Source: an uncultured candidatus Porisulfidus sp. (lineage in GTDB: Bacteria; Pseudomonadota; Gammaproteobacteria; Poriferisulfidales; Oxydemutatoraceae). Taken from it: a stretch of DNA of 64,000 nucleotides. The stretch is from NCBI GenBank assembly GCA_963693105.1, contig OY843752.1, positions 613,789-677,788 on the forward strand, given 5' to 3'. Positions within the stretch are counted from its first letter, which is position 1; each line of letters starts with the position of its first letter. The notes beneath the pieces were generated by a model, which saw only the letters and a program-made list of their open reading frames with translations, did not search any database and had not been told where the DNA came from. The translations under genes were made by a program, and so were the position numbers. Below, piece by piece: positions 33,389-37,152 of the stretch.

Positions 33389-33426
33389 CCCGCGGTGCGG
33401 CCCATGGTCGCCCGCGGGTTTTTTTA
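33389..33426 (+). terminator. rho-independent terminator (CCCGCGG…CCGCGGG + T8)
   Basis: GC-rich inverted repeat followed by TTTTTTTT. Confidence 0.6.
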
Positions 33427-33460
33427 TCCGCGCCAACCCGTTCAGAAACCCTTGTCAGTA

Positions 33461-33488
33461 TTGACACAAATATCCAGCCTTGTATATT
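33461..33488 (+). promoter_or_regulatory. sigma70-type promoter TTGACA-16-TATATT of precursor 1
   Basis: consensus -35 and near-consensus -10, about 52 nt upstream of ATG; conserved in every cassette. Confidence 0.55.
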
Positions 33489-33540
33489 CTGCGGCCCTGG
33501 TGCAATTTCGCACAATAACAATTAAAAAAGGAAACCTGTT

Positions 33541-34053
33541 ATGGAAAAACAACAAACCAGCAAGTTGACGATGCCGGTGACGCCTGAGGCAATCTCTGCA
33601 ACGTTGGCCATTCTTTACGCCGAAGATGCGGATTTTCGCGCTGCATTTGACAAGGACCCGAAAGCGACGGTTGCCAAAGTTTCTGGCCAGGAAATCCCGT
33701 CCGATGTGGAAATCGTGGTTCATCGCAACGACCCCAAACGCTGGCATATCACGCTTCCGGTGGAAGGAATGGATGTCGCACAACTGGGGGACAAGGAGAT
33801 GGGGGACGTAGCCGGAGGCGTGTCTTTTTTCACTGGTGCGGGCATGATTGGGTGCATCACTGGCAATATAGTTGCTGCGTTGTGTCCTGGTGCTTGCTGC
33901 TCCCAGGAGCCGGCGTCGGGTACTTCCGCTCCTACTGAGGCCCAGCAGGCGTTTGCCGCCGACCCCTTAGGGCCAATCATTGGCGCGTTGAGCACGATGC
34001 GCGATGCGCTGAACAGGGCAGGTGTCACCGGCTCAAGCGGAAGCGGCGGCTGA
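33541..34053 (+). CDS. NHLP-leader precursor peptide 1 (leader to …MGDVAGG; 77-aa Gly/Ala-rich core with 4 Cys: …IGCITGNIVAALCPGACCSQ…; Gly/Ser tail)
   Basis: leader …ILYAEDADFRAAFDKDPKATVAKVSGQEIPSDVEIVVHRNDPKRWHITLPVEGMD… matches the nitrile-hydratase-like leader peptide family ending in a double-glycine. Confidence 0.8.
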   Translation: MEKQQTSKLTMPVTPEAISATLAILYAEDADFRAAFDKDPKATVAKVSGQEIPSDVEIVVHRNDPKRWHITLPVEGMDVAQLGDKEMGDVAGGVSFFTGAGMIGCITGNIVAALCPGACCSQEPASGTSAPTEAQQAFAADPLGPIIGALSTMRDALNRAGVTGSSGSGG

Positions 34054-34078
34054 TTCGACCGTTTCGGTCTGAACCCAA

Positions 34079-34117
34079 CCCGCGGTGCGGCCCCATGGCC
34101 GCCCGCGGGTTTTTTTA
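34079..34117 (+). terminator. rho-independent terminator (same hairpin + T8)
   Basis: CCCGCGGTGCGGCCCCATGGCCGCCCGCGGG followed by TTTTTTT. Confidence 0.6.
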
Positions 34118-34151
34118 TCCGCGCCAACCCGTTCAGAAACCTTTGTCAGTA

Positions 34152-35247
34152 TGCAAAAGCTCAGACACCTTTGGCACTCTGATCTGCGAGGAGAGCCATG
34201 CAAATCCATCGTGTCGGATACCGCATCAAGGGGTATTCACAAGTAGTCAAATTAGGGCATCTTTGGGATATGACGAGCAAAGATGCCCTGCAACGTATCA
34301 AAATCCTTGAGTTCGCCGAGCGGCACGGACAGGGCGCCGCTATCGATGCCTTTGAAGTCAGTTCGCGTACGCTGTATCGCTGGCGCCGCGCGCTCAAACT
34401 TCACAACAACCGCATCAGCGCACTTACCCCCAAATCATGCGCGCCGCACCGCAAACGGCCGCCGGCCACCGCGCCCGCCGTGGCCGCGCAAATACGCGCC
34501 ATGCGATTCCATAAACACCACCCCAATATGGGCAAAGCCACTATCCACGCCAGCGAGGAGTTCCGGCGCTGGTGCCGCGAGAACCGGGTGGCGCTGCCGA
34601 GTGTGTCCACCATCGGGCGCATCATCGCGCGTGCGCCGGATAAAATGCGCCACGCCCCGCTACGACTCGGCCCGCGCGGACAGCCCAAATCCGTGCGCCA
34701 GCAACACAAAACACGCCGCATCAAAGGTTATCAACCGGCCCCGCTGGAACTCATCGCTGGCGATACCATCGTCCGAATGCGCGATGGCATCCGCCGCTAC
34801 CTCACCACCTTCATCGACCCCAACAGCCGCTTTGCCGTCGCCTTCGCCTCGCGCACCGCTTCCAGCCGTCAAGCCACCCTTACCCTCAACGCCCTCATCG
34901 ACCTGCTGCCGGCAGCCCCCAAATACCTGCTCACCGACAACGGCTCCGAGTTCATGGGCGACTTCCAAAAACGACTCGATGAACTCCATATCACCCACTG
35001 GTGGACCTACCCCAACTCACCCAAAATGAACCCTCACGCCGAACGCTTCAACCGCACCATCCAGGAGAGTTTCGTCGACTACCACGACGACCTCCTGTTC
35101 TCCGACCTGACCCTCTTCAACCAAAAACTCGCCGAATGGCTGGTCTTCTACAACACCCAAAGACCACACCATTCCCTCAAACGCCAATCTCCCATACAAT
35201 ACCTCTCACAACAACTTCCATACTGCCAAAGGTATTGGACTTGTACA
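34152..35247 (+). mobile_element. insertion sequence, IS481-like (about 1.1 kb, imperfect terminal IRs TGCAAAAG…CCTTTGGCA / TGTACAAG…CCTTTGGCA, 5-bp direct repeat CAGTA)
   Basis: interrupts the otherwise conserved spacer …CCTTTGTCAGTA|TTGACACAAG… seen intact in the other cassettes; CAGTA present on both flanks (34147-34151 and 35248-35252). Confidence 0.75.
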
Positions 35248-35256
35248 CAGTATTGA
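34198..35256 (+). CDS. DDE (rve/integrase-core) transposase, IS481-family-like; stop codon lies in the flanking -35 hexamer
   Basis: 352 aa with N-terminal HTH (…SSRTLYRWRR…) and rve core (…LLTDNGSEF…NPHAERFNRTIQ…) ; ORF runs through the right IR and terminates at TGA formed by TSD+TTGACA. Confidence 0.85.
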   Translation: MQIHRVGYRIKGYSQVVKLGHLWDMTSKDALQRIKILEFAERHGQGAAIDAFEVSSRTLYRWRRALKLHNNRISALTPKSCAPHRKRPPATAPAVAAQIRAMRFHKHHPNMGKATIHASEEFRRWCRENRVALPSVSTIGRIIARAPDKMRHAPLRLGPRGQPKSVRQQHKTRRIKGYQPAPLELIAGDTIVRMRDGIRRYLTTFIDPNSRFAVAFASRTASSRQATLTLNALIDLLPAAPKYLLTDNGSEFMGDFQKRLDELHITHWWTYPNSPKMNPHAERFNRTIQESFVDYHDDLLFSDLTLFNQKLAEWLVFYNTQRPHHSLKRQSPIQYLSQQLPYCQRYWTCTQY

Positions 35257-35280
35257 CACAAGTATCCAGCCTTGTATATT
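35253..35280 (+). promoter_or_regulatory. sigma70-type promoter TTGACA-16-TATATT of precursor 2 (immediately abutting the IS right end)
   Basis: same conserved promoter as the other cassettes; upstream terminator/spacer replaced by the IS. Confidence 0.55.
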
Positions 35281-35332
35281 CTGCGGCCATGGTGCAATTT
35301 CGCACAATGACAATTGAAAAAGGATATCTATT

Positions 35333-35858: not shown

Positions 35859-35893
35859 ATCCGCGCCAACCCGTTCAGAAACCTTTGTCAGTA

Positions 35894-35921
35894 TTGACAC
35901 AAGTATCCAGCCTTGTATATT
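35894..35921 (+). promoter_or_regulatory. sigma70-type promoter TTGACA-16-TATATT of precursor 3
   Basis: conserved cassette promoter. Confidence 0.55.
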
Positions 35922-35973
35922 CTGCGGCCATGGTGCAATTTCGCACAATGACAATTGAAAAAGGATATCTATT

Positions 35974-36429
35974 ATGGAAAAACAACAAGCTAGTACGTTG
36001 ACGATGCCGGTGACGCCTGAGGCGACCTCTGCGACGTTGGCGCTTCTTTACGCCAAAGACGCGGATTTCCGCGCTGAATTTGACAAGGACCCGAAAGCGG
36101 CGATTACCAAAGCTTCCGGCCAGGAAATCCCGTCCAATGTGGAAATTGTGGTTCATCGCAACGACCCCAAACGCTGGCATATCACGCTTCCGGTGGAAGG
36201 AATGGATGCCGCACTGGCTGACACGGATATCGAGAACATAGCCGGAGGCACGGGAGCGCCGAGCGATATAACTGGTGCCGCTCTTGGGTTCGTAAGTATG
36301 GCGCTGGGTATATGTGGTGGTGTTTGTGAGCCGGACGGAGGCTACCGGATAGGCTCGTTGGCGGCGTTAGCCGCGGTGACGGGCGCGACGGCTGCTGCCG
36401 GGTCAGGCGGCGGCCCAAGCGGCGGCTGA
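35974..36429 (+). CDS. NHLP-leader precursor peptide 3 (leader identical in most positions to copy 2; core diverges after …GICGGVC: EPDGGYRIGSLAALAAVTGATAAAGSGGGPSGG)
   Basis: as above. Confidence 0.8.
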   Translation: MEKQQASTLTMPVTPEATSATLALLYAKDADFRAEFDKDPKAAITKASGQEIPSNVEIVVHRNDPKRWHITLPVEGMDAALADTDIENIAGGTGAPSDITGAALGFVSMALGICGGVCEPDGGYRIGSLAALAAVTGATAAAGSGGGPSGG

Positions 36430-36455
36430 TTCGACCGTTTCGGTCTGAACCCAAA

Positions 36456-36492
36456 CCCGCGGTGTGGCCCATGGTCGCCCGCGGGTTTTTTT
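36456..36492 (+). terminator. rho-independent terminator (same hairpin + T7)
   Basis: inverted repeat + T-run. Confidence 0.6.
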
Positions 36493-36527
36493 ATCCGCGC
36501 CAACCCGTTCAGAAACCTTTGTCAGTA

Positions 36528-36555
36528 TTGACACAAGTATCCAGCCTTGTATATT
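36528..36555 (+). promoter_or_regulatory. sigma70-type promoter TTGACA-16-TATATT of precursor 4
   Basis: conserved cassette promoter. Confidence 0.55.
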
Positions 36556-36607
36556 TTGCGGCCATGGTGCAATTTCGCACAATGACAATTAAAAAAGGAT
36601 ATCTATT

Positions 36608-37090
36608 ATGGAAAAACAACAATCTAGTACGTTGACGATGCCGGCGACGCCTGAGGCGACCTCTGCAGCGTTGGCCCTTCTTTACGCCAAAGACGCGGAT
36701 TTCCGCGCTGAATTTGACAAGGATCCGAAAGCGGCGATTGCCAAAGCTTCCGGCCAGGAAGTCCCGTCCAATGTGGAAATTGTGGTTCATCGCAACGACC
36801 CCAAACGCTGGCATGTCACGCTTCCGGTGGAAGGAATGGATGCCGCACTGGATGACGCGGATATCGAGAACATAGCCGGAGGCACGGCACCGGGCGCTAT
36901 GGCGACTGCTGTTGGGTTCATGGGTATGGCACTGGGTGTGTGTAGTGGTCTTTGCACGGAGGAGGAGGCTATTTCCAGCATGAGGGACGGCCAGGCGCCG
37001 CACGAATTCTTCCGACAAAATTTTGGCTTGTTTTTTGGAGCTGGGAGTGGTGGTTCTGGCGGCTCAAGCGGCAGCGCAAGCGGCGGCTGA
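36608..37090 (+). CDS. NHLP-leader precursor peptide 4 (leader to …IENIAGG; core TAPGAMATAVGFMGMALGVCSGLCTEEEAISSMRDGQAPHEFFRQNFGLFFGAGSGGSGGSSGSASGG)
   Basis: as above; core with CSGLC and Gly/Ser-rich tail. Confidence 0.8.
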   Translation: MEKQQSSTLTMPATPEATSAALALLYAKDADFRAEFDKDPKAAIAKASGQEVPSNVEIVVHRNDPKRWHVTLPVEGMDAALDDADIENIAGGTAPGAMATAVGFMGMALGVCSGLCTEEEAISSMRDGQAPHEFFRQNFGLFFGAGSGGSGGSSGSASGG

Positions 37091-37116
37091 TTCAACCGTT
37101 TCGGTCTGAACCCAAA

Positions 37117-37152
37117 CCCGCGGTGTGGCCCATGGCCGTCCGCGGGTTTTTT
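37117..37152 (+). terminator. rho-independent terminator (same hairpin + T6) located 20 nt upstream of nqrF
   Basis: CCCGCGGTGTGGCCCATGGCCGTCCGCGGG + TTTTTT. Confidence 0.55.

Follow-up and report, generated by a model that had tools for sequence, protein, structure and literature searches.

The DNA described here, 64,000 nucleotides of contig OY843752.1 from an uncultured candidatus Porisulfidus sp. (this whole stretch is called the window below), carries five small plus-strand precursor genes, P0 to P4, between nqrE and nqrF of an nqrABCDEF-apbE operon. Four near-identical cassettes fill positions 33388-37152, and a fifth, diverged gene, P0, lies upstream of them. Our preferred reading, held with reasonable though not high confidence, is that this is a tandem array of five NHLP-type genes in which each main gene forms a separate, co-regulated transcription unit with its own box, promoter and terminator. 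Such a unit would consist of a 16-nt box, TCAGAAACNTTTGTCA, near -45.5, a sigma-70 promoter (TTGACA-16-TATATT), a 5' untranslated region (5'UTR) of ~46 nt with an AAGGA site, the gene, and a strong intrinsic terminator. One DNA-binding regulator would switch all cassettes together via the shared box, and a private promoter and terminator would free the output of each peptide from its neighbors and from the host operon. The transcription and expansion of precursor families with a constant leader and a variable core have rarely been worked out.

An earlier note on this DNA had described every copy as preceded by the same module, and re-reading of the sequence confirmed that its named elements are present at the coordinates claimed within 33388-37152. 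In order, a cassette comprises a terminator hairpin with U6-8, a 35-nt stretch, TTGACA-16-TATATT, 52 nt from the -10 box to the ATG with an AAGGA site, and the gene. The description fits the four cassettes; the module of P0 is diverged (61% identity) and has no preceding terminator, and that of cassette 2 (P2) is interrupted, since a 1096-bp IS481-family element has come in between the spacer and the -35. The start-to-start distances of 641 and 634 nt agree with the period of ~635-640 bp that had been reported, and the first unit measures 691 nt once the insertion sequence is removed. Regulatory DNA is, as had been claimed, more conserved than core-coding DNA. Among cassettes 1-4, per-segment identity is 88-100% for the module segments (hairpin, 95-100%; 35-nt "spacer", 97-100%; promoter, 96-100%; the 52 nt between -10 box and ATG, called the 5'UTR in the earlier note, 88-100%) and 88-97% for leader coding sequence, versus 53-81% for core coding sequence.

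The label "spacer" proved to be a misnomer, since the 3' half of the 35-nt stretch is the conserved box. Upstream regions of ten genes from four lineages (A to D) were compared, anchored on the motif and with cassette 3 as the reference. The box TCAGAAACNTTTGTCA matched at 15-16 of 16 positions in every comparison; the 30 nt upstream of it matched at 7-16 of 30 positions and the spacer between -35 and -10 at 1-9 of 16, and leader DNA was 64-73% identical. A -35 hexamer (TTGAC, TTGAT or TTGAA type) always follows the box after 3 nt, and a -10-like hexamer (TATATT, TATAAT, CATAAT or TATCAT, with a weaker AAAGT type in some lineage B units) lies 16-18 nt after the -35. The cassette anatomy is real and its promoter-like elements are conserved, with box and -35/-10 found upstream of genes in all four lineages. 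Box and -35 together make TGTCA-N4-TGACA in three lineages. In the sequence examined, the loci of the later metagenome scan excepted, the box was found solely upstream of these genes. The box is probably a transcription-factor site shared by the cassettes, bound by a putative regulator. Its presence before precursor genes in four lineages offers a handle for finding that regulator and, through the regulator, the missing maturation and export genes.

The box was also compared informally with LytTR/ComE repeats and Pho, lux, FNR, CRP, Fur, LexA and ECF -35/-10 elements, and none fitted convincingly. A metagenome scan with a 22-base box pattern gave zero matches. A looser pattern gave 22, of which ~15 were copies of one AT-rich sequence and the rest were single and about as many as the number estimated for chance, and no NHLP gene stood downstream of any of them. 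The AT-rich copies (23-nt pattern; L020-L040, on contigs with accessions beginning JAABU) were discarded as relatives; in L020, the only copy inspected, the repeat adjoins a gag-like open reading frame (ORF) with a CCHC zinc knuckle. It is probably a retroelement, probably eukaryotic, with a box match that arose by chance and was amplified by repetition.

TTGACA-16-TATATT begins at 33461, 35253, 35894 and 36528 and matches 11 of 12 consensus positions each time. With a spacing of 16 nt, these four pairs of hexamers fall within the 16-18 nt of a sigma-70 promoter, and hexamers are kept in the other lineages; the region holds 12 promoter-like sites versus 2.7 +/- 1.7 in shuffled sequence. The box, -35 and -10 arrangement of P0 is repeated in L001, a sister strain, and in L015 of lineage B. 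With transcription predicted to begin ~7 nt past the -10, in cassette 3 the start site would lie near 35928 and the box center near -45.5. That each cassette is individually and strongly transcribed is a prediction from these consensus matches.

The 5'UTR gave little evidence of an RNA element. Single-sequence folds were no better than shuffles (z +0.24, -1.1 and -0.9), and a MAFFT/RNAalifold alignment held four pairs with zero covariation. A small hairpin, GUGC-N6-GCAC, appears in the single-sequence centroid folds, and its lineage B counterpart, read by eye as GGGC-N6-GCCC, contains one compensatory pair (U-A to G-C); as an RNA element this hairpin is a weak lead. A scan of positions 32000-38000 against Rfam at E <= 1 returned three chance-level matches far below gathering scores and no known RNA family. 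In lineage C, a 15-nt tandem repeat, CAGTGTCAGTGGCAG, lies between the -10 box and the start codon (L002, 9916-9978 and 10740-10772), in about three copies in one cassette and two in the other; it is absent from the window.

The five hairpins (ACCCGCGG...CCGCGGG followed by U6-8) fold at -27 to -34 kcal/mol, with z scores of -3.3 to -4.9 against shuffles, and each has the form of an intrinsic terminator, i.e., a GC-rich hairpin followed by a U-tract on the transcribed strand. A simple terminator scanner overlooked them, since it takes account of the inner stem and loop alone, to which the T-run is not directly adjacent. The stem base ACCCGCGG/CCGCGGGU is retained by 13 distinct terminators of lineages A, B and C, and it is present in the three lineages whose contig holds a gene 3' end. 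Across the 13, 95.9% of cells pair, versus 42-48% with slid 3' partners. Compensatory changes are seen at three base pairs of the stem (e.g., G-C to A-U at the seventh pair), and ten cells are G-U or U-G, which would mismatch in RNA of the opposite strand. The pairing, the compensatory changes and the strand-specific G-U cells together are good comparative evidence that the plus-strand transcript forms an RNA hairpin.

The relatives place these units in several settings. In L001 the flanking nqr genes are 99.2-99.7% identical, the array stands in the same place without the insertion sequence, and the cassettes number six versus four in the window. Lineage B (L011, L014, L015 and L016; NqrF 91-93% identical) again has an array between nqrE and nqrF, composed of two P0-type genes, a truncated remnant and three long-core genes. 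L017 and L018 (NqrF 85% and 77% identical) have no array, and nqrE and nqrF are separated there by 21 and 10 nt. Lineage C (L002-L007) has two cassettes adjoining a PQQ-alcohol-dehydrogenase ABC system, and lineage D (L008) has cassettes after rpmB. Comparison of the junctions suggests that the boundaries of the nqr insert are the P0 box on one side and the last terminator on the other. The array was inserted at the nqrE/nqrF junction in an ancestor of the clade and now parts nqrABCDE from nqrF-apbE. A scan of a genome collection yielded three further loci only, and an exact-sequence search with P2 matched no recorded contig. At an Arenicellales locus, L010, five tandem NHLP genes follow one another with a period of 423-444 nt, and the box, the sigma-70 consensus and comparable terminators are all absent; NHLP arrays in general thus do not share the cassette architecture, which is specific to this sub-family.

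All five genes match TIGR03793, the NHLP leader model (E 7e-11 to 8e-13; 41.8-48.1 bits), with secondary matches to TIGR04509 and, for P0, also to NHase alpha. The leader of 92 aa is strongly conserved, G91-G92 is invariant in 12 of 12 aligned family members, and similarity collapses thereafter, as in the Gly-Gly trait by which NHLP precursors were defined together with an NHase-like leader and a variable core (PMC2887384). The region after Gly-Gly is hypervariable and holds modifiable residues. The long cores measure 59-77 aa and are Gly/Ala-rich and hydrophobic, with C-x3-C or one Cys and Ser/Thr/Gly-rich tails. Scans of the cores alone assigned no family, except for a weak, sub-cutoff match of P4 to the class IIb bacteriocin family TIGR03949 (E 0.002-0.005). 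The family is rare, with 10 clusters in a database of 5.8 billion proteins. We consider that these are probably NHLP-type precursors of secreted bacteriocin-like peptides or ribosomally made peptides with post-translational modifications (RiPPs), which would be cut behind the Gly-Gly motif and leave the cell through machinery encoded elsewhere; any maturation functions would likewise be encoded elsewhere in the genome.

P0 belongs to a subclass with a short, conserved core of 15 aa (pattern x-x-R/H-x-x-x-W/Y-G-H/Y-G-L/I-C-F/W-G), unlike the long variable cores of the other genes. Its lineage B orthologues have the cores FSRHRQGYGHGLCWG, read from L014 DNA, and FHEHPRGYGYGICWG. In lineage B the P0-type genes are doubled, with no terminator separating the copies (L014, 1-637; L015, 3902-4633). 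The truncated remnant in that lineage (L014, 700-840; L015, 4712-4834) retains a leader end, ...DADMEKVAGG, and a distinct core, RGRHIQLQSWHTCGDVYGEAWCRERGIDPNQPF, the remaining leader being absent, and is evidence that genes are born and die within the array.

The contrast between module and core had been taken as a sign of cassette duplication followed by diversifying selection on the cores. Identity does drop sharply at the Gly-Gly codons, and core dN (nonsynonymous divergence) exceeds dS (synonymous divergence) twice: 0.17 versus 0.106 for P2 of the window against unit 148a of L001, and 0.11 versus 0.043 between the L001 units 148a and 151a. With 2-5 synonymous changes behind them, these two comparisons do not reach significance. 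When leader and core were compared by dN/dS, as had been proposed, paralogue cores gave ~0.7-1.0, and the two values above 1 involved a handful of changes. The synonymous divergence itself is 3-13 times higher in cores than in leaders (paralogue dS 0.23-0.63 versus 0.05-0.08), a difference that protein-level selection cannot produce. The alignment of the most divergent cores is uncertain, and the best-aligned pair, P2 and P3, gives a core dS of 0.23 versus a leader dS of 0.08. Between the window and L001, the cores of P1, P3 and P4 are nearly identical (dN 0-0.008) whereas their leaders differ more (dS up to 0.083), and for the short P0 core the two protein sequences are the same.

One cassette of L001 can be seen directly to be a recombinant. 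Unit 148b of this strain equals the P4 unit at 20 of 20 informative sites up to alignment column 334, a span that covers the terminator, the promoter, the UTR and about the first 50 leader codons, and from column 388 onward it equals unit 148a; the two 151 units of L001 are identical. Unit 148b is the product to be expected of an unequal crossover between two leaders, an event that made a two-cassette duplication of 1259 bp. The higher core dS, the strain comparison and the recombinant cassette together indicate that much of the module-core contrast is due to gene conversion and unequal crossover. The ~430-nt block common to the cassettes, from terminator through leader, would be the part on which unequal homologous recombination and gene conversion act, with the cores meanwhile drifting apart, and we conclude that the block is held uniform largely by recombination, which also alters copy number. 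Positive selection on the cores is possible, and as the explanation of the contrast we regard recent duplication with positive diversifying selection as rather unlikely; the data did not demonstrate it. The mapped crossover in a leader illustrates how new cassettes are made while the regulatory block stays uniform.

A different view is that the promoter-to-terminator unit is a mobile gene cassette moved by a site-specific mechanism, with box and terminator as its ends. The same box occurs at three unrelated sites, namely at nqrE/nqrF, beside the PQQ-alcohol-dehydrogenase ABC system and behind rpmB. Of these, the nqr and PQQ sites alone have a confirmed ACCCGCGG...CCGCGGGU terminator base. The nqr insert runs from box to terminator, and GC content at third codon positions (GC3) is lower in the array genes (0.58-0.63) than in the nqr genes (0.74-0.87). 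However, the flanks examined contain no integrase or recombinase beside the arrays save the unrelated IS481-family element, the sole mappable rearrangement junction lies inside leader coding sequence, as in ordinary homologous recombination, and the lineages may have inherited the genes vertically and then rearranged them. This makes a site-specific mobile cassette improbable.

The expression of nqrF bears on a related idea. Its start lies about 16-20 nt past a strong terminator in the window, in L011 (1740-1758) and in L015 (6985-7003), and the terminator-to-nqrF junction of the window recurs in L001, L011 and L015. Neither a promoter scan from P4 to nqrF nor visual inspection of the 3' UTRs in three lineages revealed a promoter for nqrF. 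A recognizable Shine-Dalgarno sequence is absent at 37153-37175 of the window and in L011 and L015, and a recognizable promoter is also absent there in lineages A and B. With nqrF so near T5 and no recognizable promoter, nqrF-apbE must depend on read-through from the cassettes or from nqrA. The nqrE-nqrF junction of array-free relatives is likewise without an obvious Shine-Dalgarno sequence. Strongly terminated units kept between nqrE and nqrF across species raise the question of how nqrF is expressed and whether peptides and respiration are coupled. One might imagine the box-to-terminator unit as a self-expressing movable cassette that lands at unrelated sites in sponge-associated gammaproteobacteria, multiplies by unequal crossover and has become fixed in nqr because nqrF-apbE depends on cassette transcription. 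If this were true, the dependence would tie peptide production to expression of the sodium-pumping respiratory complex; as a whole, the scenario is a long shot.

The module could also be conserved merely through youth or homogenization, with its promoters and terminators unused and the genes read through in the nqr transcript. Within the array, the non-coding module shows 0-4 differences per ~156 nt versus 3-5 per ~64 synonymous leader sites, and it is thus neither clearly nor significantly more conserved; constraint is visible only in the cross-lineage comparison. There, however, the box, the -35, the -10-like hexamer and the terminator stem survive amid changed surroundings, the stem has compensatory and strand-specific G-U substitutions, and in lineages C and D the elements stand apart from any nqr operon, which leaves unused signals very unlikely. 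That the proteins are variable small membrane proteins working with Na+-NQR rather than exported peptides, a role that would account for their retention in the nqr operon, is hardly credible: two species-level lineages keep the nqrE/nqrF position, the cores are hydrophobic and rich in Gly and Ala, and the scanned ORFs of the 64 kb include no maturation or export genes nearby, but copy number differs among close strains, the C-terminal halves are hypervariable with an invariant Gly-Gly, lineage C and D members lie away from nqr, and relatives with 77-85% NqrF identity lack such genes.

Several points weigh against separate, co-regulated NHLP-type units. The TIGR03793 scores (42-48 bits) are slightly under the NCBI curated cutoff of 50.9, so that the NCBI rule gives no automatic name, though the match is statistically clear. 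Among the ORFs scanned in the 64 kb there is no peptidase-domain ABC exporter, HlyD-type protein, cyclodehydratase, LanM or radical-SAM protein, and none is recorded in the flanks examined for the relatives; the clustering with an ABC/peptidase/HlyD export cassette (TIGR03794/6/7) and the nearby modification enzymes expected of NHLP precursors are thus missing from the window, and the export cassette from those flanks as well. The dyad symmetry of the box is weak (TCAGAAA versus TTTGTCA, 5 of 7 complementary), and a promoter that already has a consensus -35 has no obvious need of an activator, so the ligand of the box could be a repressor or something different. Where transcripts start, how efficiently they terminate and how strong the promoters are is predicted in each case. 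Finally, a working Na+-NQR is difficult to square with four to six strong terminators before nqrF, unless these leak.

Upstream of the array by ~13 kb, at 18168-20947, lie tldD and pmbA, which in E. coli encode the microcin B17-maturing protease; they are common housekeeping genes, so their proximity is probably a coincidence.

Coordinates of the array and its neighbors in the window
Feature	Positions	Strand	Details
nqrE	32264-32872	+	TIGR01940, E 9e-100; final gene ahead of array
P0 promoter region	32894-32942	+	box TCAGAAACATTTGTCA 32894-32909; TTGAAT 32913-32918; 18-nt spacer; TATAAT 32937-32942
P0	32989-33312	+	107 aa; TIGR03793 E 7.6e-13, 48.1 bits; conserved short 15-aa core VDRRTQHWGHGLCFG
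T1	33388-33425	+	hairpin + U7; -30.4 kcal/mol, z -3.3
Cassette 1 promoter	33442-33488	+	box 33442-33457 (one mismatch); TTGACA 33461-33466; TATATT 33483-33488
P1	33541-34053	+	170 aa; TIGR03793 E 6.9e-11
T2	34077-34116	+	-33.0 kcal/mol, z -4.8
Cassette 2 box	34133-34148	+	severed from promoter by insertion sequence
IS481-family element	34152-35247	+	1096 bp; NF033577 E 4.6e-48, rve domains
Cassette 2 core promoter	35253-35280	+	TTGACA-16-TATATT, box-less
P2	35333-35794	+	153 aa; TIGR03793 E 1.2e-11
T3	35818-35858	+	-33.9 kcal/mol, z -4.9
Cassette 3 promoter	35875-35921	+	box 35875-35890; TTGACA 35894-35899; TATATT 35916-35921
Small 5'UTR hairpin	35933-35946	+	GUGC-N6-GCAC; fold not significant
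P3	35974-36429	+	151 aa; TIGR03793 E 2.7e-11
T4	36453-36492	+	-27.5 kcal/mol, z -4.8
Cassette 4 promoter	36509-36555	+	box 36509-36524; TTGACA 36528-36533; TATATT 36550-36555
P4	36608-37090	+	160 aa; TIGR03793 E 6.6e-12
T5	37114-37152	+	-26.8 kcal/mol; U6 only; 20 nt before nqrF
nqrF	37173-38387	+	TIGR01941, E 1e-195
apbE	38384-39415	+	ApbE match; follows nqrF

The insertion sequence sits exactly between the box and the -35 of cassette 2 and thereby creates a natural box-less P2 promoter. It is flanked by a 5-bp target duplication, CAGTA, at 34147-34151 and 35248-35252, and its transposase ORF (34198-35256) has its stop codon inside the -35 hexamer of cassette 2. The transposase scores 164 bits against NF033577, whose curated cutoff is 224; the DDE transposase, the imperfect terminal inverted repeats, the target duplication and a precise empty site in L001 place the element in the IS481 family. 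In hemL (25936-27209, minus strand), a 1-nt deletion in a C-run at ~26689, seen against the 98-99% identical L001, results in two overlapping frames, and the gene is intact in L001 (424 aa). The split is either a homopolymer assembly error or a pseudogene, and differences in the length of terminator T-runs and C-runs may therefore be assembly errors. Two low-GC3 islands lie upstream of nqrA, at 23700-25400 and 27246-28143, with a similar set in L001. The first includes a Mrr-type restriction endonuclease (24421-25353, minus strand) beside an ORF at 23699-24424, the L001 counterpart of which has an NmeDI-like domain, and looks like acquired defense genes. The second contains small ORFs, the L001 counterpart of one having a faint match to DUF2335.

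Paralogous NHLP and Nif11 precursor families are already known, with background in PMC2887384 and PMC10783134. The array shares with the NHLP family (TIGR03793; Haft, Basu & Mitchell 2010, PMC2887384) a ~90-aa NHase-alpha-like leader, a Gly-Gly where similarity ends, a hypervariable Cys-containing C-terminal region and several paralogues per genome. Its Gly/Ala-rich cores with C-x3-C are longer, at 59-77 aa versus ~26 on average in the LanM-adjacent NHLP subset (PMC2887384). It also differs in having scores just under the cutoff, no ABC/peptidase export cassette or tailoring enzyme within 64 kb, a private promoter box and terminator for each gene, and a place inside a respiratory operon.

Two other kinds of peptide locus invite comparison. 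The prochlorosins of marine picocyanobacteria (procA, Nif11-type) comprise many paralogues with a conserved long leader and hypervariable cores, often distant from a single modifying enzyme. The array resembles them in its paralogous precursor genes, long conserved leader and hypervariable cores. However, prochlorosins have a Nif11 leader and a known LanM enzyme, ProcM, whereas the genes here have an NHLP leader, with no modifying enzyme found in the 64 kb, and form a strict head-to-tail array with identical regulatory modules and demonstrable unequal crossover. Class II bacteriocin and microcin loci, such as the pln and blp regulons of Gram-positive bacteria, consist of small units with a regulator-binding repeat by the -35 and encode Gly-rich hydrophobic peptides with Gly-Gly leaders. 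The likeness lies in several small units that each have the same box by the -35, and it was tested here solely by the weak TIGR03949 match (E 0.002). Their leaders are 15-25 aa long, in contrast to the 92-aa NHLP domain here, and the host here is a Gram-negative gammaproteobacterium; the box has no confirmable resemblance to LytTR-type direct repeats, and neither a histidine kinase/response regulator pair nor an exporter adjoins the array.

The cassettes of integrons normally lack a promoter, are bounded by attC sites and are located next to intI. Like them, the array is a head-to-tail series of short single-gene units with repeated boundary sequences. The units here differ in possessing their own promoter and terminator, the attC-intI arrangement was not found, there being no integrase among the scanned ORFs of the window, and the mapped junction, inside leader coding sequence, is homologous rather than site-specific. 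What is new here is the strict cassette running from promoter to terminator with its deeply conserved box, an unequal crossover that could be mapped, and a place inside a respiratory operon that stays fixed.

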